64,000 bases of DNA from an uncultured Alphaproteobacteria bacterium (GCA_944390375.1 CALXPZ010000006.1:1587-65586), one strand, 5' to 3'; positions 1-18,921 are shown, counted from the first letter of the stretch. Translations and numbers: made by a program. The notes: generated by a model not told the origin, from the sequence alone.

Positions 1-483
1 CCGCGGATCAATATAAACGGATTCCACGGTTTCACCGCTCTTAACCGCAATTTCGTTTTCCGGATTAAGCGGATCGGGACGGATTTCAATCTCCGGTTTA
101 TATTGTTCCCAGATAATGCCGGCGCCGGAAATCAGAAAATCGTTGCGCGCGTATTTAATAACGCTGTCAAAATCAAATTGTTCCAAATCCCAGCGCAGGG
201 CATTTTCCAAAATTTCGCAAGCCAGTTTTTCTGCCTTGCCGGCATTTTTTTCGCTGCGCTCAATATAAAATTTCGGCTGTTTGAAATACAAAAACGGCTT
301 CAGGGTTTCTACCGTCGACCAGAAAATATTATATTTCCCGTTGCGGCTGCCTTTGCTGTCTTTATAAAAATCGCGGGTTTCATCCACCAAATCATAATAT
401 TTGGCATAAGCCTTTTCCGCCTCGCCGATTTTTTTCAGCCATTCTTCCACCAAAAGTCTTTCGTTTTTCAATTCCTCAGTCAT
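1..483 (-). CDS. phage portal protein (N-terminal part; gene runs off the window edge)
   Basis: Minus-strand reading from an ATG at 483 gives MTEELKNERLLVEEWLKKIGEAEKAYAKYYDLVDETRDFYKDSKGSRNGKYNIFWSTVETLKPF... with no stop before position 1. It sits directly downstream of the large terminase in a tightly overlapping phage operon, where a portal is the expected gene. Family assignment is by context, not by a recognised motif. Confidence 0.45.
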   Translation of the reverse strand, partial: MTEELKNERLLVEEWLKKIGEAEKAYAKYYDLVDETRDFYKDSKGSRNGKYNIFWSTVETLKPFLYFKQPKFYIERSEKNAGKAEKLACEILENALRWDLEQFDFDSVIKYARNDFLISGAGIIWEQYKPEIEIRPDPLNPENEIAVKSGETVESVYIDPR

Positions 484-733
484 CGTTTATCACTCCCAGA
501 ATACTGCTCTCACGGACGACCACCACATCTTTGTCCGGTGTTTCCAGTTCGTCAAAAACATGAAACAGAACCTTGTCGCCCGCTTTGACGGAACGCACGT
601 CTTTCCCCGTACTTTCCACCACGCCGACCGTGCGCGGTTCATCAATATCCGCCGCCAGCAAAATGCCGCCGGCCGTTTCTTTCTGTGGCGCCAACCGGAT
701 AAAAATCCGGTCGGCTATTGCTTTCATTTTCAT
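476..733 (-). CDS. GroES-like co-chaperonin (Cpn10 fold), 85 aa, embedded in the phage packaging module
   Basis: The translation carries the GroES hallmarks: N-terminal A.ADRIFIR, the mobile-loop anchor TAGGILLA, VGVVESTGKDV, and the C-terminal VVVVRESSILGVI (compare SESDILAIVE in E. coli GroES). Its start and stop overlap the neighbouring ORFs by 4-8 bp. Confidence 0.6.
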   Translation of the reverse strand: MKMKAIADRIFIRLAPQKETAGGILLAADIDEPRTVGVVESTGKDVRSVKAGDKVLFHVFDELETPDKDVVVVRESSILGVINDD

Positions 734-963
734 TTTTCTTTCCTTTCAAAAAAGAAGATTGACATAAAAAACGCCGCCCATTGATCGGACGGCCCATATT
801 CCCGGGTCTTACCGGCGGCAATGCCTCCTGCCGCAATCGGAACCACCGGCGGCAGATTGCCACGGACAAAACTCAGCCGGCCGGCAAACTGCTCCCAATC
901 CCTTCTGACCGGCATCTCGACCGGTTCAAAGAAGTTGTTCTTGACGAATAAGTCTTCAGGCAA
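730..963 (-). CDS. small hypothetical phage ORF (77 aa) between the large terminase and the GroES-like gene
   Basis: An ORF with ATGA-type overlaps on both sides, fitting a translationally coupled phage operon. No recognisable motif. Confidence 0.3.
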   Translation of the reverse strand: MPEDLFVKNNFFEPVEMPVRRDWEQFAGRLSFVRGNLPPVVPIAAGGIAAGKTREYGPSDQWAAFFMSIFFFERKEK

Positions 964-966
964 CGT

Positions 967-2358
967 CTACCATCCGCTGTTTTTTCCCCTCTCTGCCAAA
1001 GAAAACATTTCTTCCACCGACACCTTACCGTTGCCGTACAATTTCGGCATTCCGTAATCGTAAACCGGTTCGGCAAAAGTGAGCGCCAGCGCATCGGCCT
1101 TATCAGGAGAACGCCCGAGGCGTTTTTTTACCTCGTCCTTATCTTCCAGCTGCAGGCGTCCGCGGCCGTCAAATTTCTTGTTTACAGCGGTCAGTTCGTC
1201 AAACAGATCCTCGTCGGCAGGCAATTCCGGCGGCGGCAGCTCGCCGAGCCAGCGGTTGATTTTATCCCACATTTCCGCCCGCCGGTTGAAATACCGATCT
1301 GCTTTTAACGCCTTTTCGCCAAAATAAACACCGCGGATAATCTCACCGAAACCGCGGTCTTTCAAAATATCGTAAACACCGGCCCCCTGTCCGCCGATAT
1401 CCATAAACAGCCGCACCGGACGCCGTTCTTCAATGATATTGGTGGCAATATTGGCCACTTCCACGTTATTTTTGCCGCCGTAACTTTCAAACCCCGTAAC
1501 CAGCCGTCCTTTGCGAAAACAAAACACCGTTTTGTCGTCGCCGAAACGGGCAATATCAAGTCCCACCACCAGCGGCGACGTGGTCGAGGCAATTTTGCGT
1601 TCAAACGCCCGCCGCACGTCGGTTGCGCTGATGATCCGTTCTGCGCCTTGCGAAAGCGGAGCTCCCATCCAGATATGCTGGTAGTTTTCGGGATTTTCCC
1701 GCCGACATTTTTCCGCCAGCAAACGCATTTCTTCGGGACAAAAAGGATTGTCGCAATAGTTAACCCGCCGGATCCAGCTTCGTTTGTCGGGGTTTGCCGC
1801 CACCGCCGTCCAAACCGGATCGTTTTCATAAAGCCTGTTCATGGAAATCCAGATTTCTGAACCGTCCTTGCGGATGGTCGGTTCCAAAATTTCCCAGCTT
1901 CGTTTACTGATCGACTGAGCTTCTTCAACCCAGGCAATATCCACGCCTTCAAGCGATTTTATTTTTTGGCTGTCCTGCTCGCGCAATCCTTTGAAAATAA
2001 AACGGGTACCGGTAACCCTGTTATCAATTCTGTCTTCATAAACCTTGTAATCGGACAACCCGTAAAAGGCAATGCGGTCAGCCAAAAGCTTATGGACGGA
2101 ATCTTTGATTGAATCCTGAATTTCCCGCAAACAGGCAATCAGCAGCTTTTTTTGCCGCCCGAGCAAAAGCAGGCTGTCGGCAAAAGCATAAGACTTTCCG
2201 CCGGCACGGCCGCCGTAACACATCTTAATCCTGTATTTTTTCGTCATCAACGGCGCAAACACTTCCGGAATCCGCGCGGTAACCTTCTTCATCATCTCCT
2301 CCTTCATTTTCATCTGCCCGATCAGCCTGCTGCAGCCGATTTCCCTCGGTTTTGACAA
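967..2358 (-). CDS. phage terminase large subunit (PBSX/XtmB-like); true start probably an internal Met near 2292-2313
   Basis: Walker A motif YGGRAGGKS, a Walker-B-like LLIACLREIQD, and a C-terminal nuclease-like region with acidic residues (DIARFGDD...MDIGGQGAG). Length 440-463 aa is typical of a TerL. Confidence 0.85.
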   Translation of the reverse strand: MSKPREIGCSRLIGQMKMKEEMMKKVTARIPEVFAPLMTKKYRIKMCYGGRAGGKSYAFADSLLLLGRQKKLLIACLREIQDSIKDSVHKLLADRIAFYGLSDYKVYEDRIDNRVTGTRFIFKGLREQDSQKIKSLEGVDIAWVEEAQSISKRSWEILEPTIRKDGSEIWISMNRLYENDPVWTAVAANPDKRSWIRRVNYCDNPFCPEEMRLLAEKCRRENPENYQHIWMGAPLSQGAERIISATDVRRAFERKIASTTSPLVVGLDIARFGDDKTVFCFRKGRLVTGFESYGGKNNVEVANIATNIIEERRPVRLFMDIGGQGAGVYDILKDRGFGEIIRGVYFGEKALKADRYFNRRAEMWDKINRWLGELPPPELPADEDLFDELTAVNKKFDGRGRLQLEDKDEVKKRLGRSPDKADALALTFAEPVYDYGMPKLYGNGKVSVEEMFSLAERGKNSGW

Positions 2359-2779
2359 AGCGCACCAAAACCTGTTTCAACTCATCGTCGGCCTTATTTT
2401 TGACATCGCTTTTTTCCACCCAGCCGTGATTGGCCTTAAGCGCGGAAATAGACATGGACGAATTGTAAAAACCGAGCCCGGCAGCATTCATCAGCCATTC
2501 TTCCTGATAAAGTTCCGCCTTCAGATAAGCTTCCGCAAATTCCGGATATTTTTCCCGCCAGCGGGCAAGAGAACCGACCGCAACGCCGATTTCGTCGGCA
2601 AACCGCACAAAAGTCGGACAAGGTGCCGGCACTTTTTCCGCAACTTCTTCACATTTATCGCTTTTTTTGCTGTATACGGTATGCATCTCCGTATGATACA
2701 AAGGGGCGTTCTTAAACCACGCCACCAGCTTTGCCGCATATTCGGGGCAATATTCGTCTGTTTTTAATTTCCTCTTCAT
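2225..2779 (-). CDS. phage terminase small subunit (putative), counted from the internal Met MKRKLKTDEY
   Basis: About 185 aa, immediately upstream of and overlapping terL. HTH-like stretch RFADEIGVAVGSLARWREKYPEF and an acidic C-terminal tail. The reading upstream of 2779 is low-complexity and probably not coding. Confidence 0.5.
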   Translation of the reverse strand: MKRKLKTDEYCPEYAAKLVAWFKNAPLYHTEMHTVYSKKSDKCEEVAEKVPAPCPTFVRFADEIGVAVGSLARWREKYPEFAEAYLKAELYQEEWLMNAAGLGFYNSSMSISALKANHGWVEKSDVKNKADDELKQVLVRFVKTEGNRLQQADRADENEGGDDEEGYRADSGSVCAVDDEKIQD

Positions 2780-3228
2780 TTCCTCTGCCGTCTGTAATTT
2801 GATCTGCCATCCGTTGCCGCTTTTCCCCGCATCACCACACCACCTTTTCCGGTTTTGGCTGCCGAAAAAGATTAAATGGATACAAAAAAGGGCACCGCCC
2901 GACGCGATGCCCCGTAATAAGGAGAAAAAACATGGATACTTTTTGATTGATCGGCCCACCCTCAGAACCGTCAAAAAAAAATGGACAAGCAGGAAAACCG
3001 CCTACTCATCCATTATGGAAAAAATCTATACCACAATCTGACGAAAAAATCAATACTTTCTCTGAGAAGTTGTGGATAAGTTTTATATTTATATGTAAAT
3101 TCAACAGGATAAACAACTTCAATTTTCAACCGAACGGCCCTGATTTAGACATTTCATTTGTTCAAAAACAAAAAGGCAGGCATCAAAACAACTGCCCACC
3201 CTTTCATTTATATATAAAACAACATATT

Positions 3229-3555
3229 CTACACATCATCCTCAATTTTTTTGGGATTCTGTATTTTCTGATGCAAAGCATTATTATGCAGCCGCCGCAA
3301 ATATTCCGTACATTGGTGATAATCCTCAATAATGTCAACGGCCAGCATGGTTTCTTTGCTTACTGTTTCATAACGGCATAAAAGCGCTTCGACGCCGCAT
3401 AATAAATTATATGTATTGATCGCCCCCCGCGTTCTCGGCTTGGAATATTCCATCATGTTCAAAAATTGCCTGAAATCATCTCTCAACTTTTCCGGGGGCT
3501 GACAACTGTCATAAATGTCTGTGCCTTGATATTTTTCGATATTCATTATCATCAT
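3229..3555 (-). CDS. hypothetical prophage protein (108 aa)
   Basis: ORF in an AT-rich prophage segment, same strand as the packaging genes. No motif recognised. Confidence 0.35.
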   Translation of the reverse strand: MMIMNIEKYQGTDIYDSCQPPEKLRDDFRQFLNMMEYSKPRTRGAINTYNLLCGVEALLCRYETVSKETMLAVDIIEDYHQCTEYLRRLHNNALHQKIQNPKKIEDDV

Positions 3556-3667
3556 CCTTTACGTTTTAAAACAAAATCAACCATACTCTAATACACAACT
3601 AAAATTTTTAATAATATTTTATTGCAAATAATAACAGGTTTTTATACATAAAAAAACATATATCAAA

Positions 3668-4150
3668 TTAAACATTCCAATAAAATTGAATAAGCCTGTC
3701 CAGTCCGCGACATAAATCTCGCCTCATGGCATAGTTCATTTCCGATTTCCACCTGCTTTTCGAAACATCTGTTTCCGGTTCTCTGTTTTCCAAACATACA
3801 CTTTTAACAACCGGCCAAAACTCGTCCGGAACATGCTTAACAGCTCTAAAATATCGCTCTCTTGCTTTGCAGATAAATTCAATGTCAAGAGCACTCTTTC
3901 CTTTACAATCCACTTTTTCTTTTGCCGAAAAAACCGAACCGGACATAAAACATGATCTTTCAAAATCTTGTTGCAGACATTCGGCCGCCTTTAACCTGTC
4001 TTCTTTCGAATATCGCGGATTTCCCAGCTCCAACCATCCTCTGAGTGCATATCTTTCCAACAGCGTCATTTTGCAAACACCACCCTTGCTATGCACAAAT
4101 CCTTGCCTGACACAGCTTTTTTTATCAATATATTTTTCCTGATTTTCCAT
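3668..4150 (-). CDS. hypothetical prophage early protein, divergent from the repressor (start at MENQEKY, or M1 at 4177)
   Basis: ORF of 160-169 aa transcribed divergently from the CI-like repressor across a 95-bp palindrome-rich intergenic region. That is the position of a cro- or antirepressor-like gene in a lysogeny switch. Confidence 0.4.
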   Translation of the reverse strand: MENQEKYIDKKSCVRQGFVHSKGGVCKMTLLERYALRGWLELGNPRYSKEDRLKAAECLQQDFERSCFMSGSVFSAKEKVDCKGKSALDIEFICKARERYFRAVKHVPDEFWPVVKSVCLENREPETDVSKSRWKSEMNYAMRRDLCRGLDRLIQFYWNV

Positions 4151-4177
4151 CACGTTTTCTCCGATTGCGCATACCAC

Positions 4178-4272
4178 ATATATACATTATATGTACATAA
4201 TGTCAATACGGAATATGTAATTTACAAACCGCCTTTTTTATTACATAATCTGTAATAAACAAGGAGTGTATT
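4178..4272. promoter_or_regulatory. divergent promoter/operator region of the prophage lysogeny switch
   Basis: 95-bp AT-rich intergenic region with a perfect 10-bp palindrome TATGTACATA (about 4199-4208), reiterated TACAT/ATGTA motifs, and an AAGGAG ribosome-binding site 7 nt upstream of the repressor ATG. Confidence 0.4.
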
Positions 4273-4938
4273 ATGAACAACAAATGGACCTGGCTAAAAG
4301 AATACATGCAGAAAAACAACATCTCTCAGGGCGATGTAGCCGATGCCCTGAAATGGCAAAAAACACGAGTTTCCGAACTTTTGTGCGGCAAACGGGACTT
4401 TCCCGTCAACAAAGTTTTTCCCGCCGCCCGCTTTTTTAATCTCGACCTGGAAGAGTTTACCAAATACAATTCCGGCTTTTCCAAAGAAATACCGTCAACC
4501 GCCGGCAAAACCCCGCTCAGCCGCGCTCAACGCTGCATGGTTTCAATAGATATCGTCGAAACCTCCGCCACCGCAAAACAAACACGCTTTCAAACAATCG
4601 GACAACAAACGATCAACGAAGAAATTTTCAAAATGTTAACCGCCTCCGCTCCCGATTCCGTCAAAGCTATGTTTTCCCGCGGAGATTCCATGCAGCCAAC
4701 CATCAGCGACGGTGATTTGATCTGGGTCGATATGTCGATCAACACGCCGACCGTCGACGGCCTTTATCTGTTTGCCATCAGAGGGGAAATTTTTGTAAAA
4801 CGCCTGCAAATGGACAACTTTAACCGCACGGCCTCCATCATTTCCGACAACCCGCTCTATCCGCCGATAACAATTAACAAACCGGATAAAATATCCACTC
4901 TCGGCAAAGTCATATCGGTAACCAAAGTATACCGCTGA
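4273..4938 (+). CDS. phage CI/LexA-like repressor (XRE HTH + S24 peptidase domain)
   Basis: N-terminal HTH (NISQGDVADALKWQKTRVSELLCGKR). C-terminal S24 self-cleaving peptidase with Ser in GDSMQPTISDGDLIWVD and Lys in IFVKRLQ. Confidence 0.8.
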   Translation: MNNKWTWLKEYMQKNNISQGDVADALKWQKTRVSELLCGKRDFPVNKVFPAARFFNLDLEEFTKYNSGFSKEIPSTAGKTPLSRAQRCMVSIDIVETSATAKQTRFQTIGQQTINEEIFKMLTASAPDSVKAMFSRGDSMQPTISDGDLIWVDMSINTPTVDGLYLFAIRGEIFVKRLQMDNFNRTASIISDNPLYPPITINKPDKISTLGKVISVTKVYR

Positions 4939-4982
4939 CATTGCCCGCCGCTGCTCGATATTTTGACGACAGCCTTACGAAA

Positions 4983-5021
4983 AACGGGAGCAAACCTGTA
5001 TTTACTCCCGTTTATTTTTAT
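4983..5021 (+). terminator. rho-independent terminator after the repressor gene
   Basis: Stem AACGGGAG...CTCCCGTT followed by TATTTTTAT. Confidence 0.5.
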
Positions 5022-5038
5022 AAAATGACCGCTGATAT

Positions 5039-5791
5039 TTATTGATTCTGAAACGCTTTCTCCTCCTCGTTAAGCGCTTTTTCTTCCGAAATCGGCTGTT
5101 TTGTTTTCTGATCATAACGAACGTTCAGTTCCACCGGTTTTTTGTTTGAACGTAGCTGAATGGCCAAATCAATAACGTCGTCTCCCATATCAATTCCCCA
5201 GGGAGAACTTTCCTGCGTTCCGCCGTGGATCACCATTCCTCTCCGCCCCAGGGTATCGGTGGTAAAATCGGGCAACATCCACACCCGGTAGTCGCCCCAC
5301 AGGGCATAACCGCCCGGCCATTCTCCCCGGCCGAAAGCGCCTTTCAGCCTCTCCCAGACGGAAGCATCATAATAACGTTGCATCTGATCGACGGAAACCC
5401 ACCATTTACCTTCAGGTACCCGACTTTTTTCATTTGTTTTCTCTGCCGTATAAATTTCAAACTGCTGATTCCAGTTATAAAACGGCATATAAAGAAATGC
5501 AGCCGCCGTCAGCAAAGGCAACAACAGCACTCCCAAGGCAGTCTTAACATATTTTTTCCGCCAAAGGAAGATGCCTGCAATCGTCATCACGACCAAAAAG
5601 GGAATATAAATACTGTGAAAGGAAAAATAAACTTCCGGATCGGAATACAACCACCCCCACTGCGGATATCCCCAATAAACAAAATTATCCTGCAAATATT
5701 CCTGATAAAAACTGTCCGCCGTCAACACCAGATAAAACAGGTTAGCAGCCGCCAGCAAACAAAAGAAAACATATCCCGCAATTTTCTTCAT
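5039..5791 (-). CDS. hypothetical membrane protein (about 4 N-terminal TM helices plus a soluble C-terminal domain)
   Basis: Hydrophobic N-terminus (YVFFCLLAAANLFYLVL..., IYIPFLVVMTIAGIFLW, LGVLLLPLLTAAAFLYM) and a C-terminal domain containing GMVIHGGTQESSPWG. No family assigned. Confidence 0.45.
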   Translation of the reverse strand: MKKIAGYVFFCLLAAANLFYLVLTADSFYQEYLQDNFVYWGYPQWGWLYSDPEVYFSFHSIYIPFLVVMTIAGIFLWRKKYVKTALGVLLLPLLTAAAFLYMPFYNWNQQFEIYTAEKTNEKSRVPEGKWWVSVDQMQRYYDASVWERLKGAFGRGEWPGGYALWGDYRVWMLPDFTTDTLGRRGMVIHGGTQESSPWGIDMGDDVIDLAIQLRSNKKPVELNVRYDQKTKQPISEEKALNEEEKAFQNQ

Positions 5792-6516
5792 GCTTCAATC
5801 TCCAAGAAAAAATAATCATACGTTTTGGCTACAATGACATTAAAATAAATAAACAACGGCGACCCCGCAACAATCGCTATCCAGCTTCCTGCTCCGACCG
5901 CCTGACCCGCCAGTTCCATAATACCAAACATTGCTTCAAATAAAAAAAGCAAAAATGTCATTCGCCAATAATTTCCCTTTGTTTTGGCAAATGCCGTCCG
6001 CAAAGAACCGCTGCGTCCGAGCAAAGAACTGATCCAAGCCATCATCGGGCGATAAAAGATAAAAGGCGCCGCAAATATCAAAACGACGGCCGTCAAAACA
6101 TCGACCGTCCGCCCGTCTTCCATATACTCTTGCAGATAAACGGCATATTTTACCGCCCATTCGGAACCGTTTCCGATAAACAGCGGCAACAGCGGCAAGG
6201 CCAGCAGAAAAGTCAAAACGCAAAATGCCAACGCCAGAATTTTGGTTGACGGCAACAAGGTATCAAACAATTTAACCGTTGCCAGATAAGGTTTTCTGTT
6301 AAAATAAAAACGAAAGAAAAAACACCAAAAAAGATAATAGGCAATCCCCCAGGGCAGAAAAAAGAGATCATGCCAGCCGTCAATCAGTTCAAAACCGGCA
6401 ATCAAAAAAAGAATATGCACAGCCGAAAATAAAGCAATCTCCCGTTTTCGCCCGACCATATAGCGCCAACTTTCCCGAAACAAATCCGCAAGGGCTATCG
6501 TTCTGGCATCGGTCAT
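5788..6516 (-). CDS. hypothetical polytopic membrane protein (242 aa)
   Basis: Multiple predicted TM helices. Overlaps the downstream ORF by 4 bp. It occupies the position where tolB/pal would normally follow tolA. Confidence 0.45.
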   Translation of the reverse strand: MTDARTIALADLFRESWRYMVGRKREIALFSAVHILFLIAGFELIDGWHDLFFLPWGIAYYLFWCFFFRFYFNRKPYLATVKLFDTLLPSTKILALAFCVLTFLLALPLLPLFIGNGSEWAVKYAVYLQEYMEDGRTVDVLTAVVLIFAAPFIFYRPMMAWISSLLGRSGSLRTAFAKTKGNYWRMTFLLFLFEAMFGIMELAGQAVGAGSWIAIVAGSPLFIYFNVIVAKTYDYFFLEIEA

Positions 6517-6530
6517 AATATATCCTCCAT

Positions 6531-7487
6531 CTACTGCACGGTATGGCTGATCGGATCAAAGCGCAAAAGCATTGTTTTCCAGACGTCATATTTGTCGCCG
6601 TGTTTTTGTGCCAAAATACTGTACGGTTGGCAAATATAAACGGCACGCCGCGCACTGTCTGCCACCGAGCGGAAATGAGCATCGGAAGCATAACGTCCTT
6701 TATCCAGAATATCAACTTTTTGCACTGATCCGTCCTGTCCGAGATAGGCTCGAATTTCAACGACCATACCCTCAATTCCCATAGCGCCGGGATCAAGATT
6801 CCAACATTGTCTCAGGCGTGCGGCAATCGCGTCCGTTTCCGAAATGGAAAGCTCGCTGAAATAAGAGCCTCCCGAACCACCTTCAATCCCCATATTGGCG
6901 GTTTCCGTTCCTTCTTTTACGGTCGCCTCGCCGGCCTCCGCATTCAGTTTCTTTTCCAGCGCATTAACCGAATCCATCAGGTTTTTCAAGGCGCTGACCT
7001 CGGGAACTTTTTTCTCGGGCGCCTTTGCGGGAGCTGTCTTTCTGCTTTCTTTCTTCACCGCCGGTTTGGAAGGTGTCGGGCGTTTGGGCTCTGGTTTCTT
7101 TTCCGGCAGCTTGGGCTTTGACGGCTGCGGCGGCACGACAAAACTTTCTTTTTCCGGCAGCGGAGCCTCCTCTTTTTCGGCCGGCGCCGGAGTTTCAATC
7201 ATACTCGGCTGTTCGATCTTCTGCGGTTTGGGATCCGGTTTTCTGACCGGCTTGGGCTGCGGGACCGGCGGCGTTTTTTTGGGTGCCGTCGGCATTTTAG
7301 TTTCTTTTGCAAATTTTGCTTTTGCCGGCAGATTGGTCATTTCGGAAATCTTAACCTGATCCAGATCGACAATAATCGGAGGCTGGCTCAATACCATATC
7401 CTTATGCCAAAACAGCGGTATGTCTGCCATTGCCAGCAGAAATACGATTGCATGCAGCGCAAGGGATTTGTAAAGAGCCGATTTCAT
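6531..7487 (-). CDS. tolA: TolA-like protein (TonB-family C-terminal domain with a Pro/Lys-rich linker)
   Basis: N-terminal TM anchor, a long proline-rich spacer (PKKTPPVPQPKPVRKPDPKPQK...PKLPEKKPEPKRPTPSKP), and a C-terminal TolA/TonB-type domain. It sits immediately downstream of tolQ-tolR. Confidence 0.65.
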   Translation of the reverse strand: MKSALYKSLALHAIVFLLAMADIPLFWHKDMVLSQPPIIVDLDQVKISEMTNLPAKAKFAKETKMPTAPKKTPPVPQPKPVRKPDPKPQKIEQPSMIETPAPAEKEEAPLPEKESFVVPPQPSKPKLPEKKPEPKRPTPSKPAVKKESRKTAPAKAPEKKVPEVSALKNLMDSVNALEKKLNAEAGEATVKEGTETANMGIEGGSGGSYFSELSISETDAIAARLRQCWNLDPGAMGIEGMVVEIRAYLGQDGSVQKVDILDKGRYASDAHFRSVADSARRAVYICQPYSILAQKHGDKYDVWKTMLLRFDPISHTVQ

Positions 7488-7490
7488 TCT

Positions 7491-7940
7491 TTATTTCTTC
7501 TTCATTGTTTGTGCGGGATCCGGTTCTGTCTTAAGGCCGACTTTATCAAAACCGGCATTTTTCAGCATAGCCATCAGGCCGATCACCCGTCCGTACTGGG
7601 CATCCGTATCGCCGGAAATGACAACGCTGATCTCGGGATTGGCCTTACGCACGGCCAGTACCTTGGCCACGATTTTGTCGGCGGCAATTTCATCTTTCCC
7701 GATATAATAGACCCCCTCCCTGTTGACGCTGATATTAAGGGAGGTTTCTTTGCCGGTCAGGTTTTGCCCGCCCACTTTCGGCAAATTCAAGGCAATTCCG
7801 GAAGTCATCAGAGGTGCGGCCACCATAAAGACAACCAAAAGCACCATCATCACATCCATCAGATTTGTGATGTTGATCTCGGCATTGCGTCTTTTCGGCC
7901 GCCGGACGCGGGTTCTTCCCGATGTTGCAAAATACGTCAT
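7491..7940 (-). CDS. tolR: TolR/ExbD biopolymer transport protein
   Basis: 149 aa with the ExbD/TolR N-terminus (RRNAEINITNLMDVMMVLLVVFMV) and periplasmic domain. Overlaps the tolQ stop. Confidence 0.85.
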   Translation of the reverse strand: MTYFATSGRTRVRRPKRRNAEINITNLMDVMMVLLVVFMVAAPLMTSGIALNLPKVGGQNLTGKETSLNISVNREGVYYIGKDEIAADKIVAKVLAVRKANPEISVVISGDTDAQYGRVIGLMAMLKNAGFDKVGLKTEPDPAQTMKKK

Positions 7941-8677
7941 TATTCACCTGCCATATCGGCTTTAATGGCCGTATCATCAATTTCACGCGACAAAATACTC
8001 GAAAATTCGGCCATAAAGTTCTCCAGCCGGTTGGCATAACGGTCTATGTCAGACGAAATTTTGTTATAAGCGACCACCGCCGGAATAGCGGCAATCAACC
8101 CGAAAGCGGTTGTAAACAAAGCCTCGGCAATACCGGGGGCAATCGCCGACAGCGAATTGCTTTGCGTTGCGGCAATCGCGTTAAAACTGTTAATAATTCC
8201 CCATACGGTACCAAACAACCCGACCAGCGGCGCCACCGAACCGGTTGAAGCCAGAAACCCCATCCGTGTATCCAGCTCGTCCAATTCTTTATCCATCGAA
8301 ACGGTCATGGCTTTTTCAATCCGCTGCTGCAGAGAAACACCGCGCAGCCCGCGGTCGGTTTTTGACTTCAAAATATTGGTTCGTTTCCATTCCCGCATGG
8401 CTGCCACAAACATTGCCGACATCGGATCGGCCGGTCGGTTGCCGATACTGTCATACAAACGGTCCAGCGATCCCCCGGACCAGAATTTGGATTCAAAGCT
8501 GCGGGAAAGTTGCTTAACTTTGCGCAAAGTCCCCACTTTTTCGATAATAATCGCCCACGACCAGACCGACGCGGCAATCAGCCCGATCATCACCGCTTTG
8601 GTTACAAAGTCGGAATTCCAGACCAAATCCCACATTGACATCTGTTGAGCGGCTTCTGCCAAAGTTTGCGTATCCAT
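7940..8677 (-). CDS. tolQ: TolQ/ExbB proton-channel protein
   Basis: 245 aa with three TM helices and the MotA/TolQ/ExbB signature (VGLFGTVWGIINSF, IAPGIAEALFTTAFGLIAAIPAV). Confidence 0.85.
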   Translation of the reverse strand: MDTQTLAEAAQQMSMWDLVWNSDFVTKAVMIGLIAASVWSWAIIIEKVGTLRKVKQLSRSFESKFWSGGSLDRLYDSIGNRPADPMSAMFVAAMREWKRTNILKSKTDRGLRGVSLQQRIEKAMTVSMDKELDELDTRMGFLASTGSVAPLVGLFGTVWGIINSFNAIAATQSNSLSAIAPGIAEALFTTAFGLIAAIPAVVAYNKISSDIDRYANRLENFMAEFSSILSREIDDTAIKADMAGE

Positions 8678-9738: not shown

Positions 9739-10191
9739 TTATTTACCGTCGATTCCTGCCGCCCTGAACATCTCGGCCGGAATACGAACCGGATGTTTCC
9801 TGAGCAAAGAAACATAAGCAAGTTTTACCGATATTTCGGCCAGCAGAGTTTCACCGCGCCGGATTTCCTGTTTCATTTCAGCGCGAGCACCTTTAACCTC
9901 CACCGCCTCACAGGTAATCGTCAGCAAATCGTCCAGCACCGCCGGCGCCTTATAATCGACGCTGATTGAACGCACCATAAAGCCGCATTTATCTTCCGCT
10001 TCCAAAGCGTCCCGCTGATTAACGCCCAGCGCGCGGACAAACTCCGTGCGGGCGCGTTCGGCAAATTTAAGATAATTGGCATAATAAACCACCCCGCCGG
10101 CATCGGTATCTTCATAATAAACCCGCGCGGGAAAATAAAATTTTCCGTCAACGATCACCCCTTCCGGCGCTTTAACCTTTTCTTCCATCAC
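9739..10191 (-). CDS. ybgC: Tol-Pal-associated acyl-CoA thioesterase YbgC (4HBT family)
   Basis: About 150 aa hotdog-fold thioesterase ([25 protein letters not shown]). Overlaps the ruvB stop by 4 bp and sits in the canonical ruvB-ybgC-tolQ position. Confidence 0.8.
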
Positions 10192-11237
10192 TCCTCCTCA
10201 AACAAATCGTCCTGATAGCTTTTCACATTTTTTCTTGCTTTCGGCACGCCAAGATAGTCGCATCCGAGGTCGGTAATCACCCGTCCGCGCGGTGTACGCT
10301 GCAAAAAACCGAGTTTCAGCAAAAACGGCTCGATCACTTCTTCGATCGTGTCGCGTTCTTCGGACAATGCCGCCGCCAGCGTATCGGCGCCGACCGGCCC
10401 GCCGCCGTAATTTTTGGCAATGCAGCTGAGATAACGCTTATCAAAAGCGTCCAGTCCGTACTTATCGACATTCAGCCGACACAAAGCGTTATCGGCTGTT
10501 GCCGCATCAATCCGTCCCGCCGCGGCCATGGCGCCGAAATCACGCACCCGCCGGAGCAACCGGCCGGCCACCCGCGGCGTTCCCCGCGAGCGCCGGGCAA
10601 TTTCCATTGCGCCTTCTTCGGACATCGGCACGTTTAACAACCGGGCGCCGCGCAAAACGATTTTCTTTAAGTCTTCCGGCGAATAAAAATCCAACCGCAG
10701 CGGAATCCCGAAACGCTCCCTGAGCGGTGTCGACAACAACCCCGAACGGGTCGTCGCACCGACCAACGTAAACGGTTTCAGGTCAATTTTCACCGACCGC
10801 GCAGACGGCCCCTCTCCGATAATCAGATCCAACTGAAAATCTTCCATGGCCGAATACAATACCTCTTCAATCGCCGGATTAAGACGGTGTATTTCATCAA
10901 TAAACAACACATCGTTGGTGTCAAGGTTGGTCAAAATGGCCGCCAGATCGCCCGATTTGGAAATCATCGGCGCCGAAGTTGCTTTAAAATTAACATCCAG
11001 TTCTTTGGCAATAATCGAGGCAAGAGTTGTTTTTCCCAGTCCCGGCGGGCCGAACAACAGTACATGATCCAACGCCTCCCGCCGCATTTTGGCAGCCTCG
11101 ATAAATATCTTCAGATTTTCGCAAACCTGCCTCTGTCCGACAAATTCCGACAAAGCGGACGGACGCAGGTTGACGGGAACGCCGGCCGGTTGTTCGTCTT
11201 CCGGCAGCAAATTCGGGTTTACGAGCCGTTCTTCCAT
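10188..11237 (-). CDS. ruvB: Holliday junction branch migration ATPase RuvB
   Basis: Walker [14 protein letters not shown], Walker B/sensor [10 protein letters not shown], and the RuvB winged-helix C-terminus. 349 aa. Confidence 0.95.
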
Positions 11238-11240
11238 ATT

Positions 11241-11894
11241 TTATGCTCCTTTGCCGGCAAATTCTTTCAACGCCAGCTTAATCAGCGTTGCCACATCCGC
11301 TTCGGGATTCTGTCCCGCTGCCAGACTGACGGCATGATATGCCTCCACCCGCTGATATCCGAGATTAACCAGCGCAGAAATAGCGTCTTCCGCTGCCGAC
11401 GAAACATCATCAGCCGGCAAAACCGCCGGTGCAATTTCCCCGTCATCGGGCGACATCGCTGCCGCCAGCTCCCCGGCATCAGCCCCGGGAGCAAGACTGA
11501 CCATTTTCCCTTTCAGCTCGCTGACAATTCTGGCCGCAAGTTTCGGCCCCACCCCGTTCGCGCGGGAAAACGAAGCCTTATCCTGAGCGGCAATCGCCTG
11601 CGCAAGCTGGGACGGCGACAACACGGACAATATGTTAAGGCAGACTTTGGAACCGACCCCCTGTACTTTCGTCAAGGTCAAAAACCATTCTTTTTCAAGC
11701 GGATGCAAAAAGCCGAACAGACTGATGCTGTCTTCTCTGACAACCGTTTCTATCCAAAGGGAAACCTCCGCTCCTCTGGTCAGTTTCGACAAAGTCCGCG
11801 CGGCGGCAAAGACCAGATAACCGACGCCGTTAACGTCAATAACGGCATAATCCTCGCCCAAACTGTCCACAATTCCTCTTAATTTTGCAATCAT
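11241..11894 (-). CDS. ruvA: Holliday junction DNA helicase RuvA (start at MIAKLRG)
   Basis: N-terminal [26 protein letters not shown] is the RuvA signature. Two HhH motifs ([28 protein letters not shown]). Confidence 0.9.
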
Positions 11895-12148
11895 CAATTT
11901 TCCCCGCGAAAAAACACAGCCAAAGCTTATAAGAAAAATCCTGCCGCCGCAATCTTTTTTTTGCAAATTAAGAACAAGAGAAGAACTTTTTTGTTATTTC
12001 AAATATATAGAGTATAATTCATTTTTCACAATTTTTTATTGAAATTTTTAAACTTTTAGTTTAAATTCTTTATGACATTCGAAAAATAATTTTTCCGAGC
12101 GTCCGATTATTATTAACAGACGGGCTTTCAACACTCAGCATCAAACCG

Positions 12149-12172
12149 ATGGCTGATATAATGGCTGATATA
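12149..12172. repeat. tandem 12-bp duplication ATGGCTGATATA x2 in the ruvA-XRE intergenic region
   Basis: Seen directly: ATGGCTGATATAATGGCTGATATA. It produces the MADIMADI reading that opens the annotated + ORF. Confidence 0.8.
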
Positions 12173-12355
12173 ATCGCCGCAATATCCGGAAACAATGCCT
12201 ATTTATCCCCGATCCACGACCGGGGCTTTGAAAATGATATTAAAGAAATCCGGACTATGCGGATTTTAAAACCATGTTTGATATGTTTGTCGGAAGCCGA
12301 AACTTCTTCATACTGCATTCGCGGTTTTACTTTAAACATTAACCAAGGATACAAA

Positions 12356-12685
12356 ATGACTGGGCAAAATAAGACTTTTCGCGGAAAAAAGGAAGACGGT
12401 TCTGCCAACCCGATTGATGTTTATGTCGGCAGCCGTATCCACGAACTCCGCATTCTCAAAGGCTGGAGCCAGAACAAACTTGCTTCCATGCTGGGCATTA
12501 CTTTTCAGCAGATCCAAAAATACGAAAAAGGCACCAACCGGATCTCCGCCAGCCGTCTCTGGTACATTTCCCAACTGACCGGCGTTTCCATCGACTATTT
12601 TTTCCGGGGCATCAGCGTCGAATTGTGGAAAGAGAGTTTCCGGCTTTTGCCGCCGGCGTGGAAAGATCTGGACATCATTCCCTAG
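12356..12685 (+). CDS. XRE-family HTH transcriptional regulator (conserved alpha-proteobacterial type), start at MTGQNK
   Basis: NPIDVYVGSRIHELRILKGWSQNKLASMLGITFQQIQKYEKGTNRISASRLWYISQLTGVSIDYFF matches the widely conserved small alpha-proteobacterial XRE regulator (NPIDxHVGSRIR...LGITFQQVQKYEKGTNRI). The upstream in-frame extension from 12149 is probably not translated. Confidence 0.7.
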   Translation: MTGQNKTFRGKKEDGSANPIDVYVGSRIHELRILKGWSQNKLASMLGITFQQIQKYEKGTNRISASRLWYISQLTGVSIDYFFRGISVELWKESFRLLPPAWKDLDIIP

Positions 12686-13398
12686 TTTTTTGTCCGTCCG
12701 GATTTTTTTTCAAAATTACGCAAATATTCTGCCCAATCGGGTAAATTTTCTTCCCGAAAAAAATGATACAGGAAATCCGTCATCAGCTTATGACGGGTTT
12801 CCGCCTCCCGGCGGGCAGTGTCAGTCATCATCATATTCTTCAATTTCAGCAGCTTTTCGAAAAAATGATTGATAAAATTATCGTTTTTTCTGTTCGGACG
12901 CTGATACTCTTCAGCCTTTTGCTCCGTCTGCGGCCAGATCGCGGGATCAAAAACCGGTGTTCCGTAACGGTTGCAGCGCGCAAATGCATATTGCAAACAG
13001 CGTATAATACCGGAAGCCCCCATTGCATCCAGCATATCCGCGTCGGATACAACCCGCCCCTCCGGGGAAGACGGACGGATACCTTTCAGGCTTTTTGAAT
13101 ATCCCATGCGGGAAATAATATCCAAAACCCGTTCCCGCACCTCGGGAGCAATACCGCACTCTGCCATAATCCGCCGCGCATTGGGCAGCTTTTCCGCCGC
13201 TTCTTTTCCAAACAGCTTATAATCATCACAGTCATGAAGCAAAGCAGCCAGTCCGACCGTTTCAGCATCGGCTTTTTCTTCTGCCGCCAACTGCATCGCC
13301 AACCGAAAAACCCGATTTACATGTTCAAAGCCGTGCCCGCTCCTGTCTGCCGCCAGCAGTTTTTTAACCTCTTCTTTGATAGGTTCCCAGTCTGTCAT
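12682..13398 (-). CDS. HD-domain phosphohydrolase
   Basis: HD-domain metal ligands H...HD (GHGFEHVNRV, ALLHDCDD) and a downstream D (VSDADMLDAMG). 238 aa. Confidence 0.75.
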   Translation of the reverse strand: MTDWEPIKEEVKKLLAADRSGHGFEHVNRVFRLAMQLAAEEKADAETVGLAALLHDCDDYKLFGKEAAEKLPNARRIMAECGIAPEVRERVLDIISRMGYSKSLKGIRPSSPEGRVVSDADMLDAMGASGIIRCLQYAFARCNRYGTPVFDPAIWPQTEQKAEEYQRPNRKNDNFINHFFEKLLKLKNMMMTDTARREAETRHKLMTDFLYHFFREENLPDWAEYLRNFEKKSGRTKN

Positions 13399-13600
13399 TT
13401 TATCCCGCCGATTATGGTTGTTTTCCCTCGTTTTTCCTGCCCCGGATTCCCGCGCAGCCGCTGTTTGATATCATGATTGCAATATTTTCAACCGCCCTCC
13501 CGTACACAAGAGCATATTCTCTTCCGGTTGCAATATTTTCAATCGTTTTACTTTCCGGCCGCAACGCTTTCGCCCGGCTGTTTTCCTGTCGCTCCGGATA

Positions 13601-14113
13601 TCAGCCGGTTTTCCGCTTGTCCGCCAACCGGGTTTCCAGTTTCCGCACACCCCGGTTATTAAAATGGCAAATGGCAATCGCCAGCGCATCGGAAGAGTCG
13701 TTATTTTTCGGCTGGCAACCGGGCAGCAGAATTTTAACCATCGTTTCCACCTGGTTTTTGGCCGCCTTACCGACCCCGACGACCGCTTTTTTGATCTTAT
13801 TCGGTTCATATTCGGTAACCGTTATACCAAACAAAGACGGCGCCAGGATAACCACCCCTCTGGCCATGCCGAGCTTAATGGTCGAAGTCGGGTTATCGTT
13901 TAAGAACACCTGCTCTATGGCGGCCTCATCAGGATGATAGGCCGCTAAAACCTCGTTTAACGTATTGTGGATCACCGCCAGCCGGTCGGCAATATTCATT
14001 TTGGCGTCGGTTTTGATAAAACCGTCAGCCACGTAACGTATTCTGTTTCCCTCTGCCTCAATAACCCCCCAGCCGGTTGAAGAAAGGCTGGGATCCAGTC
14101 CCAAAATCCGCAT
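13601..14113 (-). CDS. ruvC: crossover junction endodeoxyribonuclease RuvC (start at MRILGLDPS)
   Basis: Catalytic acidic residues in MRILGLDPSLSSTGWGVIE and AIEQVF, ...SDALAIAICH. Confidence 0.9.
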   Translation of the reverse strand: MRILGLDPSLSSTGWGVIEAEGNRIRYVADGFIKTDAKMNIADRLAVIHNTLNEVLAAYHPDEAAIEQVFLNDNPTSTIKLGMARGVVILAPSLFGITVTEYEPNKIKKAVVGVGKAAKNQVETMVKILLPGCQPKNNDSSDALAIAICHFNNRGVRKLETRLADKRKTG

Positions 14114-15877: not shown

Positions 15878-16750
15878 ATGAACACACAATCAGGCAGCAG
15901 CTGGCAGGTCGTTTTTGCCCCCCGGGACAAAGAAGATCCCCTGTTTGACGAATTTATGGAAACTTTTTTTACCGCCAGCACCTGCGATTTTACCGAAGAC
16001 GGAAAACTCTGCTATGCGGGCTACGCCTCCGAACCGGTTGACGAGCAGGAAATGGCACACGCCGCGGCCGTTTTGGGTGTGGCTCTCCCGTCTTGGAAAT
16101 GCAGCCATATTCCCGCCACCAACTGGCTCACCAAAAACGTGATTGCTTTTCCGCCGCTCATAACCGACGATTTCTACATCTACGGCGTACACGAAGAACA
16201 AACGCCGCAAACCGACAAACACCGGCTGCGCATATATGCTGCCACTGCTTTCGGATCGGGACAGCATCAGACCACCCGTCTCTGCCTTGAGTTCCTGAGC
16301 CGTCTTTTCCACCATTCTTTCCGCCCCGGCAAAATTCTGGACATGGGATGCGGATCAGGCATTTTGGCTTTGTCTTCCCTTTTGCTTTGGCCAAACGCCT
16401 CGGCCGTTGCCGCCGATATTGACAACGAGGCGGTCATCGTTACTCTGCAAAACGCGGCCGACAACGGGCTTGATTACCGGATATCCGCCGCCTGCGGGGA
16501 CGGCTATCAAAACGGCCTGGTGCGGGAAAACGCTCCTTACGACCTTGTATTTTCAAACATTTTGGCTCGTCCGCTCATTGAGATGTCGCCGGCGCTCGCC
16601 TCTGCCCTGAAACCGGGCGGATACGCCGTCCTTTCCGGTTTTACGGAAGAACAGACGGACTGGGTACTTGCGGCGCATGAAAAAGCGGGGCTAAAAAGAA
16701 TTGCCGTGCTCAAAAACGAAAACTGGCGCGCGGCTCTGATGGAGAAATAA
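15878..16750 (+). CDS. prmA: ribosomal protein L11 methyltransferase PrmA
   Basis: FGSGQHQTTRLCLE and the SAM-binding motif ILDMGCGSGILAL. Confidence 0.85.
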   Translation: MNTQSGSSWQVVFAPRDKEDPLFDEFMETFFTASTCDFTEDGKLCYAGYASEPVDEQEMAHAAAVLGVALPSWKCSHIPATNWLTKNVIAFPPLITDDFYIYGVHEEQTPQTDKHRLRIYAATAFGSGQHQTTRLCLEFLSRLFHHSFRPGKILDMGCGSGILALSSLLLWPNASAVAADIDNEAVIVTLQNAADNGLDYRISAACGDGYQNGLVRENAPYDLVFSNILARPLIEMSPALASALKPGGYAVLSGFTEEQTDWVLAAHEKAGLKRIAVLKNENWRAALMEK

Positions 16751-16751
16751 A

Positions 16752-18443
16752 ATGAATTTAACCGAAATACGGCAGCATCTGACCGAAAAAAAATACGACG
16801 CGCGGCTGATCACCCGCAACAATCTGTTTTTGGGGCAGGATACCCTGGAACGGGAAAACCTCATTTTAGCCTTAACCGGATTTTCCGGTTCTGCCGGTAC
16901 CCTGATCGTAACCGGCAAAAAATCCTTTCTTTTTACCGACGGCCGCTACGAAATCCAGGCAGCCAGACAGGTCAATCCGGAAGAAACGGAAGTTATCTGC
17001 GACGCCTCTCTTACCGATTGGCTGCAAGAGCATTTTTCCGCCAAAATAAAACTTGAATACGACCCCTGGTGCGTCAGCATCCGGGAAGTTTTGCAAATGA
17101 AGCATCGGCTTCCCGGCCTTCGTCTTTACCCCAAAACGGAAACCTGCGTTTTGGAACCGGCCAGCGTATTTGCCCACGAACTTCAATATTGCGGCACGGA
17201 TACCAAAGAAAAATGCGCTCTTGTCCTTGAACGCCTCCGGCAGAAAAACTGCCGGGCCTGCCTGCTGACCGCGGCCGACAGCGTATCCTGGCTGACCAAC
17301 CTGCGTTCCGACGCCCTGCCCGACACGCCGGTTGTCCGCGCCATGGCGCTGCTCCGGGACGACACCGGCATCACCCTGTTTGCCGACGAATTGTCTTTCC
17401 CAAAAGATTGCCCCTATCCGGTTTTGCCGCTGGCCAAAATGGAAAAAGAACTGGCCGCGGCCAAAGACCTGACTTTTGCCGTTGACGAACAACGGACGCC
17501 CGACGCCGTCCGCCGGATCTTTGAAAAGCACGCAGTCAAAACCGTCTGTGCGGACGATCCCTGCCAGTTGCTCAAAGCCCGAAAAAACAAAACAGAAATC
17601 AACGGCATGATCAACGCCCACCTGCGCGACGGCACCGCGGTCTGCAAATTTCTCTGCTGGCTGGAACACAACAACGAAGATCTGAGCGAGCTGGATATTG
17701 TCGAAAAACTGCACGAATTCAGAAAACAGCAGCCTTTATATTATTCCGACAGTTTTCCCACCATTGCCGGCGTCGGCGCAAACGCAGCCGTCATCCATTA
17801 TCAGCCGACAGAGGAAACCAATGCCCCGCTTGCAAAAAACACGCTGCTTTTGATTGACAGCGGCGGGCAATATTTCAACGGCACCACCGACATCACCCGG
17901 ACAGTCGCGCTCGGCACGCCGGCAAAAGAAATGAAAGAAAAATTCACCATTGTTTTAAAGGCGCACATAGCCCTGGCCTCCGCCCGCTTTCCCAAAAATG
18001 TTCCCGGCGCGGTTCTTGACGCCGTCTGCCGCAGCGTCATGTGGCGTTTCGGGCTGGATTACAAGCACGGCACCGGACACGGCGTCGGCTGTTTTCTCAA
18101 TGTTCACGAAGGTCCGCAAAACCTCAGCCCCCGCAGTTTTTCCTGCCCGCTTGAAGAAAATATGGTAGTCTCCGTAGAACCCGGCTGGTACCGGGAAAAC
18201 GCCTTTGGCATCAGGATTGAAAACCTGGTCCGGGTCATTGCCGACGACCAACTGCCCGATATGCTGAAATTTTCAATTCTTACTCTGGCGCCGCTTGATA
18301 AACGCCTGATTGATAAATATCTTTTAACCGGCGAGGAAATCGAATGGGTAGACAACTACCACCGGGAAGTTTTCCGGAAAATTTCTCCCGGCCTGACGGA
18401 AGAAGAAAAAAGCTGGCTGGAGGAGGCCTGTTCCTCGTTATAA
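16752..18443 (+). CDS. M24-family Xaa-Pro aminopeptidase (aminopeptidase P-like, 563 aa)
   Basis: Creatinase/prolidase N-terminal domains plus the pita-bread catalytic domain with metal ligands (DSGGQY, HGTGHGVG, VEPGWY, IRIENLV). Starts 1 bp after the prmA stop. Confidence 0.85.
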   Translation: MNLTEIRQHLTEKKYDARLITRNNLFLGQDTLERENLILALTGFSGSAGTLIVTGKKSFLFTDGRYEIQAARQVNPEETEVICDASLTDWLQEHFSAKIKLEYDPWCVSIREVLQMKHRLPGLRLYPKTETCVLEPASVFAHELQYCGTDTKEKCALVLERLRQKNCRACLLTAADSVSWLTNLRSDALPDTPVVRAMALLRDDTGITLFADELSFPKDCPYPVLPLAKMEKELAAAKDLTFAVDEQRTPDAVRRIFEKHAVKTVCADDPCQLLKARKNKTEINGMINAHLRDGTAVCKFLCWLEHNNEDLSELDIVEKLHEFRKQQPLYYSDSFPTIAGVGANAAVIHYQPTEETNAPLAKNTLLLIDSGGQYFNGTTDITRTVALGTPAKEMKEKFTIVLKAHIALASARFPKNVPGAVLDAVCRSVMWRFGLDYKHGTGHGVGCFLNVHEGPQNLSPRSFSCPLEENMVVSVEPGWYRENAFGIRIENLVRVIADDQLPDMLKFSILTLAPLDKRLIDKYLLTGEEIEWVDNYHREVFRKISPGLTEEEKSWLEEACSSL

Positions 18444-18468
18444 ATCACAATATTTAACGGAGAACAAA

Positions 18469-18921
18469 ATGAAAAAATTGATTTTAAGCCTGCTGCTGAT
18501 ACCGGCGGCCGTTCGTGCACAACAGCTGCAGTTTGAAAGCGCCGCCCCTCAAACGCCGATCGAACAATACTTTCAGGAAGAAAATCCCCAATACCGGCAA
18601 TCCATGATATTTGTATTTTATAATAACGAACCCTGCGGCAACTGCCCGCAGGCAATCGCCCTGATTGAACAAATCTACGACCGTTATTATCAAAATCTTT
18701 ACGGTTTTTCCATTATCAACTATCAGGATGATGACGAATACAACTTTATCGAAACCTACAACCTGAGCAGCCCGTTAAGCGTGGTTATGGTACGCGTCAA
18801 TGACGGCGCCGTTTTCGGGTTTGAAAAAATAGACAACCCGCAAAATCAGATTTCCGATCCGGTTTCTTTCAGCGACTATTTCCGCTACCGGGTCAATTCA
18901 TTTCTCGGCAGCAACGGATAG
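18469..18921 (+). CDS. secreted thioredoxin-like protein (CxxC), 150 aa
   Basis: Signal peptide MKKLILSLLLIPAAVRA. The FYNNEPCGNCPQ motif resembles a thioredoxin-fold active site. Confidence 0.4.
   Translation: MKKLILSLLLIPAAVRAQQLQFESAAPQTPIEQYFQEENPQYRQSMIFVFYNNEPCGNCPQAIALIEQIYDRYYQNLYGFSIINYQDDDEYNFIETYNLSSPLSVVMVRVNDGAVFGFEKIDNPQNQISDPVSFSDYFRYRVNSFLGSNG

Follow-up and report, generated by a model that had tools for sequence, protein, structure and literature searches.

To our knowledge, few gene transfer agents (GTAs) are known. RcGTA of Rhodobacter capsulatus and CcGTA of Caulobacter crescentus are encoded by phage-derived clusters of ~14-17 kb without integrase or replication genes, which are chromosomally fixed and vertically inherited under purifying selection, are governed by a GafA (DUF6456) regulator and have terminators in or ahead of the cluster. 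PBSX of Bacillus subtilis and FpGTA of Faecalibacterium, both non-infectious, occupy a conserved locus, are repressor-controlled and carry lysis genes; FpGTA is a podovirus-like, GTA-like element from the gut and was called the first GTA-like element of the human gut microbiome in a 2026 study (PMC12946183). The element considered here appears to share the features listed for RcGTA and CcGTA and, with PBSX and FpGTA, the repressor control, conserved locus and lysis genes. Its regulatory and packaging (left) end evidently fills positions 1-4938 of a 64,000-nucleotide stretch from an uncultured alphaproteobacterium (GCA_944390375.1, CALXPZ010000006.1:1587-65586), which is called the window below; the full cluster of phage-derived head, tail and lysis genes measures ~17 kb. 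On balance we favour reading it as a domesticated, vertically inherited and repressor-controlled element, kept by selection and GTA- or PBSX-like in kind, that derives from an Mx8-like temperate podovirus. A literature search gave no description of a GTA in RF32-type bacteria, and a fixed element of podovirus derivation in gut Alphaproteobacteria appears to be undescribed.

The window cuts the element within the portal gene, and the remainder is visible in related loci and in a contig (CASFHE010000035, here L001; other loci are numbered likewise) that was retrieved by an exact look-up of the Cpn10 protein and matches the window at 99.1% identity over 8.3 kb. Past the window start, L001 encodes the full 611-aa portal, a 78-aa protein, a 226-aa scaffold-like protein and a 333-aa capsid protein (phrog_9953 at 7.7e-109), next a 191-aa protein, a tail protein (phrog_6013) and a 523-aa protein (phrog_5107), and then an acyltransferase-like protein, a virion/fibre protein with a Peptidase_S74 chaperone domain and two tail-collar fibre proteins. 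In related loci the cluster continues with a chaperone of fibre assembly, a holin-like protein, a Hydrolase_2 endolysin and an o-spanin-like lipoprotein, followed by a host ABC transporter and U32 peptidase; the lysis end of the window's own element is taken from loci ~80% identical to it. The full gene order thus runs from the repressor, through o160 and o105, to terS, terL, cpn10, portal, scaffold-like protein and capsid, on to adaptor and tail proteins, tail fibres and fibre chaperone, and ends with the holin-like protein, endolysin and spanin-like lipoprotein.

A preliminary description of the window had seen a remnant, or possibly a satellite, devoid of integrase, replication and lysis genes, and had called for inspection of the upstream sequence, where capsid and tail genes have now been found. 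The first two absences hold over the whole element: in the gene maps of L001 and L007-L025, no full locus has an integrase, recombinase or excisionase in the interval enclosed by conserved host genes, no replication gene occurs anywhere in the element, where only o160 and o105 stand between repressor and terS, and no att-like direct repeats above chance were found at the junctions. The lysis genes, on the other hand, were missing only because the window ends in the portal. Judged by its gene content, the element is a complete morphogenesis and lysis cluster and no remnant, and it encodes all its own virion genes, contrary to what is meant by a satellite.

A distribution scan, with one genome per species and the 523-aa protein as query, recovered the same syntenic cluster in 19 species-level metagenome-assembled genomes (MAGs) from human, mouse and ruminant guts, which are labelled as uncultured Alphaproteobacteria, Azospirillum or Rhodospirillales. 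Two of the hits are short contigs that carry the element in non-proteobacterial bins, labelled Holdemanella biformis (L022, CAVDQP010000086) and Bacteroidaceae (L024, CAVIWQ010000050), the latter with the same ABC/U32 host flank; both are probably binning contamination. The site of the element is between tolQRA-o242-o250 and the ABC-transporter/U32-peptidase pair. The right junction, to ABC/U32, is shared by 11 species loci, and the left junction, to o250, by the window, L011, L016, L018, L053 and L060; in L016 the stop codons of o250 and the repressor are only 9 bp apart. The same tol-o242-o250 order is seen in L050, L053, L054 and L060, and the related viral contigs hold no homologue of o242 or o250. 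In the window the host genes o250, o242, tolA, tolR and tolQ (5039..8677, minus strand; MotA_ExbB and ExbD families) lie outside the element at this conserved left junction, and a hairpin, I7 (4982..5013; 13-nt arms, 92% complementary), occupies the element/host boundary between the convergent repressor and o250. The element had been thought to sit where tolB/pal would be expected; tolA-o242-o250 proves to be the host arrangement even in a lineage that keeps only a scar of the element (L054), and the element lies after o250.

Co-divergence of element and host was assessed in nine genomes that hold both flanks, with the ABC and U32 proteins representing the host side. Pairwise protein identities of the element follow those of ABC/U32 (Spearman 0.75-0.93 per protein), concatenated protein distances of element and host agree almost one to one (r=0.984, slope 1.05, Mantel p=2e-4), and the two neighbour-joining trees have 5 of 6 internal splits in common. 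The ratio of non-synonymous to synonymous substitution rates (dN/dS) is 0.01-0.3 for every element gene across 7 species pairs, which is the purifying selection expected of a GTA; terminase, portal and capsid are among the most strongly conserved (0.01-0.06), and the tail-fibre genes are the most variable. The species pairs show similar synonymous divergence (dS) in element genes and in the host genes beside them, and the GC content of the element genes at third codon positions lies within the host range. One lineage, L054, has lost the element. There o250 is followed by a 28-aa C-terminal stub of the repressor, then by a chimeric open reading frame (ORF) in which part of o160 is fused to the final 47 codons of the terminal lipoprotein gene, and then by ABC/U32. 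Evidently ~15 kb were deleted from the interior while both ends stayed behind, a loss other than by excision, and this implies that the element was ancestral in the L054 lineage too. A non-self-propagating structural cluster that is fixed and vertically inherited is one part of what Lang and Beatty understand by a GTA, and the element conforms to this part, at the same locus in at least 11 species; the integrase or att sites and the replication module of a functional temperate prophage do not occur at the loci between conserved host genes. The earlier suggestion of a domesticated, possibly GTA-like element thus gains support from its fixed locus in many species, co-divergence, purifying selection, deletion scar and lack of integrase and replication genes.

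The element's capsid protein shares 48% identity with its counterpart in Myxococcus phage Mx8, and the element rather likely descends from an Mx8-like temperate podovirus through loss of the integrase, replication and most internal-virion genes. Among IMG/VR contigs whose capsid is 59-76% identical to that of the element, the order terL-cpn10-portal is kept wherever the junction is spanned, except in the rearranged L035. Four of these relatives are 34-35 kb long, with additional early and internal-virion genes among the long ones; in the three that were examined, the extra genes encode methyltransferase-like proteins, a glycosyltransferase and 2-3 large internal-virion proteins; a contig common to L027 and L059 carries a large serine recombinase adjoining host dnaB. 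The compact element gives the impression of having descended from such a temperate phage by the stripping away of genes. In 7 loci one internal-virion protein has a diverged homologue at a different position, which is absent from the window's species. Such homologues occur as cargo at two non-canonical sites, either ahead of terS or in the terL-cpn10 gap, and are missing in about half of the species. Cargo genes for 452-577-aa proteins were noted at L010 1816-3549, L013 2513-4246, L014 801-2159, L017 874-2262 and L026 ~12174-13901. Compared with the large internal-virion protein of the 35-kb relatives, their products are homologous but diverged (e.g. E 1e-44, with 45% identity over 222 aa).

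The left end of the element is formed by a CI/LexA-type repressor of 221 aa (4273..4938, plus strand), with Peptidase_S24 (5.5e-18) and HTH_3 (7.7e-05) domains and a match to phrog_4 (4.7e-35); its translation keeps both catalytic motifs, GDSM with the serine and VKRL with the lysine, and the linker holds an Ala-Gly. The divergent regulatory region that follows (4151..4272) has promoter-like sites and operator-like palindromes, namely TTATTACA-N5-TGTAATAA at ~4238..4259, ACATTAT-N6-ATAATGT at 4183..4202 and TGTAA-N-TTACA at ~4216..4226. A TTACA-N5-TGTAA core and a TTGAC -35-like box recur, with sequence variation, between repressor and o160 in 12 other loci, and the LexA-like repressor with divergent palindromic operators of the preliminary description is thereby upheld.

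On the other side of this region lies o160 (3668..4150, minus strand), a putative activator or anti-terminator. The window copy scores below threshold against PF20057 (19 bits; cut-off 26.3), 10 of 13 homologues match this family (DUF6456; best 3.2e-06), and the o160-family profile retrieves bona fide DUF6456 proteins such as P0250, found at 4.3e-12 and itself scoring 148 bits on DUF6456; NCBIfam has no model for o160. From these matches we take o160 to belong to DUF6456, the family of the RcGTA activator GafA. Homologues of GafA are annotated as DUF6456 (PMC9638019, PMC9765227), and GafZ, the Caulobacter homologue of the GafA C-terminal domain, is an anti-terminator of the CcGTA cluster (PMC11150451). 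Next to o160 is o105 (3229..3546, minus strand), a conserved small early protein whose position is kept in related loci at 26-62% identity and which found no family in the Pfam and PHROG scans. Between o105 and terS, 1-3 structures made of a hairpin and a T-run are present in all 11 loci that hold o160 and the packaging genes, one family of these hairpins showing compensatory stem changes across species; a further hairpin with T-run stands just upstream of cpn10 in 9 of the 13 genome loci holding cpn10, the window included. In the window the first set falls in an AT-rich non-coding spacer (2780..3228, minus strand), which is a cargo spot in other species and contains two strong hairpins resembling intrinsic terminators (2889..2913 and 2980..3014). 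Several short repeats, direct and inverted, were also noticed in this spacer, among them GAAAAAATC(T/A)ATAC and ATTTATAT(G/A)TAAA, each twice, as well as 19-nt inverted arms at 3080-3098 and 3202-3220; it may serve as a pac site or contain promoters, or it may be the debris of a lost cargo gene.

In the mechanism that we propose, the S24 repressor would bind the TTACA-N5-TGTAA operators and silence the divergent early promoter. DNA damage would bring about self-cleavage of the repressor and so derepress o160 and o105, whereupon o160 would activate transcription, or would anti-terminate through the terminators upstream of terS and, in most species, of cpn10, so that transcripts would run on through terS as far as the lysis genes. 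The family scans agree with the places and strands that had been given for terS, terL, cpn10, portal, two small ORFs and the repressor, and the family proposed for terL and a portal match for the partial portal gene were likewise recovered. The small terminase subunit gene terS (2225..2779, minus strand; 184 aa) matches GP3_package (5.5e-06) and phrog_3064 (1.7e-24) and is called as a gene in L001 and L002. The large subunit gene terL (967..2292, minus strand) has an ORF of 967..2358 with a probable start at ~2292, overlapping the 3' end of terS; it matches Terminase_3 (6.6e-31) and phrog_3717 (2.2e-53) and is 74-88% identical over 17 species loci, with dN/dS 0.02-0.06. The portal gene (1..483, minus strand), which runs off the window start, is represented by its N-terminal 161 codons (phrog_12082, 7.5e-24).

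A headful terminase of the P22-gp3 type would then package the chromosome in situ, because the element can neither excise nor replicate; the particles would carry host DNA, as in a GTA, PBSX or lateral transduction, and would be released by the cluster's own lysis genes. A GTA in the sense of Lang and Beatty packages host DNA with no bias towards its own genes, and its capacity does not suffice to pass on the cluster. The relatives of the capsid protein belong to phages of 39-53 kb, which suggests a large rather than a small head, and if head size is conserved with these phages, the particle must hold far more than the 17-kb element. Two scaffolds of a faecal virus-like particle (VLP) virome of Mexican children (PMC8361208) bear on the contents of such particles. 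MT835830.1 (L026), a human faecal scaffold recorded as 'Bacteriophage sp.', is 16,998 bp long, has no terminal repeat and spans the element from o105 to the endolysin. From the same virome, MT837095.1 1-13251 (L060), likewise recorded as 'Bacteriophage sp.', consists almost wholly of host chromosome (ruvB-ybgC-tolQRA-o242-o250), with the repressor and o160 at its end, and this fits packaging of host DNA. The most far-reaching reading, which we advance only tentatively and hold to be decidedly less probable than not, is that the element is an independently evolved GTA of gut Alphaproteobacteria, with an Mx8-like podovirus ancestor rather than that of RcGTA, in which an SOS-cleavable repressor and an anti-terminator of the GafA/GafZ family form the switch, an own GroES folds the head proteins, and host chromosomal DNA is spread in animal guts.

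Considering the reading as a domesticated element, a number of points weigh against it. The host-flank scaffold of the VLP virome is explained equally simply by bacterial contamination, and the production of particles and their DNA content are predictions from the genes. A pac-type TerS suggests site-specific initiation, unlike the random packaging of classical GTAs. The window region is no richer in terminator-like sites than shuffled sequence, so the argument for terminators is confined to positional conservation and compensatory changes; the co-divergence, in turn, is that of nine genomes and two flanking host genes. Integrase, ejection or replication functions could lie elsewhere in the MAGs, the loci covered being those with the flanks. 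Ordinary prophages typically possess a CI-like SOS repressor, lysis genes within the cluster and variable cargo genes, the 17-kb VLP scaffold that covers almost exactly the element could reflect self-packaging, and in IMG/VR there are compact relatives whose right flank differs (L029 and L030), such that the compact form may not be strictly immobile.

The last of these points are the ones that favour an ordinary, still mobile temperate phage, unusually small at ~17 kb, which would rely on integration and replication functions of the host or encoded at a distance and would use a constant site. We regard this as unlikely, although it is the alternative that survives best, since it has to accommodate conserved host genes that enclose no integrase, excisionase, replication gene or att repeat, the one-to-one distances and congruent trees of element and host, and the loss in L054 as a ragged internal deletion with both ends in place; the clearly temperate relative, by comparison, does carry a serine integrase. 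Somewhat less probable again is a domesticated device for killing or lysis, that is a PBSX-like 'phibacin' or an altruistic lysis module, with no part in gene transfer. The PBSX-like architecture of repressor control and in-cluster lysis genes would suit it, as would the variability of the tail-fibre genes and the many species, the window's among them, without the large internal-virion or ejection proteins by which podoviruses deliver their DNA, but the strong conservation of terminase, portal and capsid would be needless in a pure tail-type bacteriocin, and no gene was identified as a toxin. A decaying cryptic prophage remnant without present function, which the missing integrase, replication and most internal-virion genes, the debris-like orf77 (see below) and AT-rich spacers and the deletion in one lineage might bring to mind, is very improbable given ~20 genes that are intact and syntenic in 19 species-level genomes, though the flanking U32 peptidase falls to 63% identity, and that have dN/dS values comparable to those of host genes.

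The gene between terL and portal encodes an 85-aa Cpn10/GroES-type co-chaperonin (476..733, minus strand), and its stop codon overlaps the portal ATG by 8 nt (ATGACTGA). The protein is placed in the Cpn10 family by Pfam (PF00166, 43.5 bits against a cut-off of 21.1, E 3.2e-11) and matches phrog_3188, 'co-chaperonin GroES', at 5e-14, while phmmer against PDB sequences retrieved chloroplast Cpn20 (3.2e-13), Cpn11 and one bacterial GroES. An AlphaFold 2 model (mean predicted local distance difference test score, pLDDT, 85) has the GroES beta-barrel fold, the top 34 Foldseek matches in the PDB all being GroES, Cpn10 or T4 gp31 (template modelling score 0.6-0.77). Its 'TAGGILL' aligns with the GroEL-binding 'SAGGIVL' of Escherichia coli GroES; this mobile loop, with the core pattern (T/S)xGG[IV][ILV][LIV], is kept in most of 26 aligned homologues and is predicted to be flexible (pLDDT 58 there). 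The roof hairpin of ~9 residues is missing in the alignment with E. coli GroES; T4 gp31 is reportedly without it as well, according to Hunt et al. 1997. With a dN/dS of 0.05-0.12 for the gene, these matches identify the protein, as far as sequence and predicted fold can, as the true GroES homologue that had been proposed at the outset. Translationally coupled to the portal, it would cap host GroEL by way of the mobile loop and help to fold portal and/or capsid.

It is very doubtful that the protein is instead a structural or assembly protein, e.g. for head completion or decoration, that has no more than the GroES beta-barrel fold. Its location inside the head module, the coupling to the portal, the missing roof hairpin and a mobile loop that is shortened in the most distant homologues (L036, L038 and L041) would be in keeping with such a role, but the homology to cellular Cpn10 goes beyond fold to sequence, the GroEL-binding core xGG[IV][ILV][LIV] is retained in most homologues, the loop is predicted to be as flexible as in GroES, and Mx8, with a colinear virion module, has no such gene. 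Neither host groES nor groEL lies within the window. A tblastn search of 50,697 phage records (E<=1e-3) yielded no Cpn10 homologue beyond one gut virome scaffold and one 36%-identical match. In every genome locus that reaches that far cpn10 precedes portal, and the fixed order terL-cpn10-portal evidently marks the whole phage lineage. A phage GroES in the head module had been called unusual; it is less so, being a hallmark of this lineage, and phage GroES genes are already known, with a PHROG family of their own and annotated examples in alphaproteobacterial podophages.

Between cpn10 and terL, a 77-codon ORF with a TTG start, orf77 (730..963, minus strand), had been listed as a gene. It has no Pfam or PHROG match, no gene is called there in the public contigs L001-L003, no homologue exists in any related locus, and its span holds a terminator-like hairpin with T-run (~773..815). 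Its status as a gene is therefore not supported, and it is probably a non-coding spacer at a variable cargo spot. The same gap contains 0.6-2 kb of extra genes in other species; that orf77 is the C-terminal stub of a 577-aa internal-virion-like gene which occupies this spot elsewhere received no support from BLAST. At this terL/cpn10 cargo spot two loci (L014 3945-4388 and L017 4074-4490) encode a 138-147-aa protein of the vertebrate serum amyloid A (SAA) family (Pfam SAA PF00277, 5.8e-19, 68.8 bits against a cut-off of 30.8), with a 'DDYFHCKGNFEATQRG' core and a C-terminal '...EKY'; the hosts of this homologue are ruminant-gut Alphaproteobacteria, and small membrane proteins lie on its flanks.

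Further observations concern the edges of the element and its surroundings. In L050 a 1045-aa autotransporter gene (10003-13140) lies between o250 and the repressor, and in L010 two genes without a family (408 and 327 aa; 16358-18581) lie between the endolysin and o182, both cases being lineage-specific insertions at the edges. A homologue of the tail-collar fibre o249 (56% identical) is found in L016 at 21028-21516, ~6 kb outside the element and past host ABC and U32, and o249 is missing from its usual o298-o118 place in L016, L018 and L019; this may point to dispersing element genes or to a second fibre locus. Just upstream of tolQ, L054 has two genes with a Phage_lysozyme domain (306 and 356 aa; 3815-5915) where other species have an unrelated gene for 267-289 aa. 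There are no Pfam matches for o105, o182, o78, o226, o242 or o250.

Comparison with the described systems places the element apart from each of them. The structural module is colinear with that of Mx8 (Myxoctovirus) and its relatives Mx9 and Bradyrhizobium phage ppBjS10J-1 in the order terL, portal, small protein, scaffold, capsid, tail protein, a 520-540-aa protein annotated as 'amidase', acyltransferase-like protein and virion protein. Mx8, however, is a complete temperate phage of 49.5 kb, with large internal-virion proteins and without cpn10 between terL and portal. TerS, TerL, GroES and an acyltransferase are among the annotated genes of podoviruses of the pelagiphage HTVC023P and roseophage CRP-901 types, as they are in the element. 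T4 gp31, RB49 CocO and phrog_3188 are, like its Cpn10, phage-encoded proteins of the GroES fold that presumably work in head assembly with host GroEL; gp31 and the element's protein are both roof-less, but only the latter is recognisable from sequence as a homologue of cellular Cpn10, and it differs from known phage co-chaperonins in belonging to a non-replicating chromosomal element, fixed between terL and portal. It would provide a natural example of a GroES that is recognisable from sequence, roof-less and linked to head assembly, through which the tuning of co-chaperonins to large capsid or portal substrates could be studied.

PBSX, which is myovirus-like, and FpGTA have hosts in different phyla from those of the element, and their structural genes are unrelated to it. 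The particle of RcGTA is of the siphovirus type, its capsid HK97-like and its head small (T=3), whereas the ancestry of the element is unrelated to RcGTA and CcGTA and of the Mx8-like podovirus type (Terminase_3, phrog_9953 capsid). Unlike these two, the element also has its own CI/LexA-type repressor, a lysis cassette and a GroES within the cluster. If it is functional, a regulator of the GafA family would be tied to a particle other than that of RcGTA, which suggests that this regulator family is an older controller of phage late genes, and the element would represent a second, phylogenetically independent domestication in the Alphaproteobacteria, of podovirus ancestry and in uncultured gut commensals of humans, mice and ruminants.

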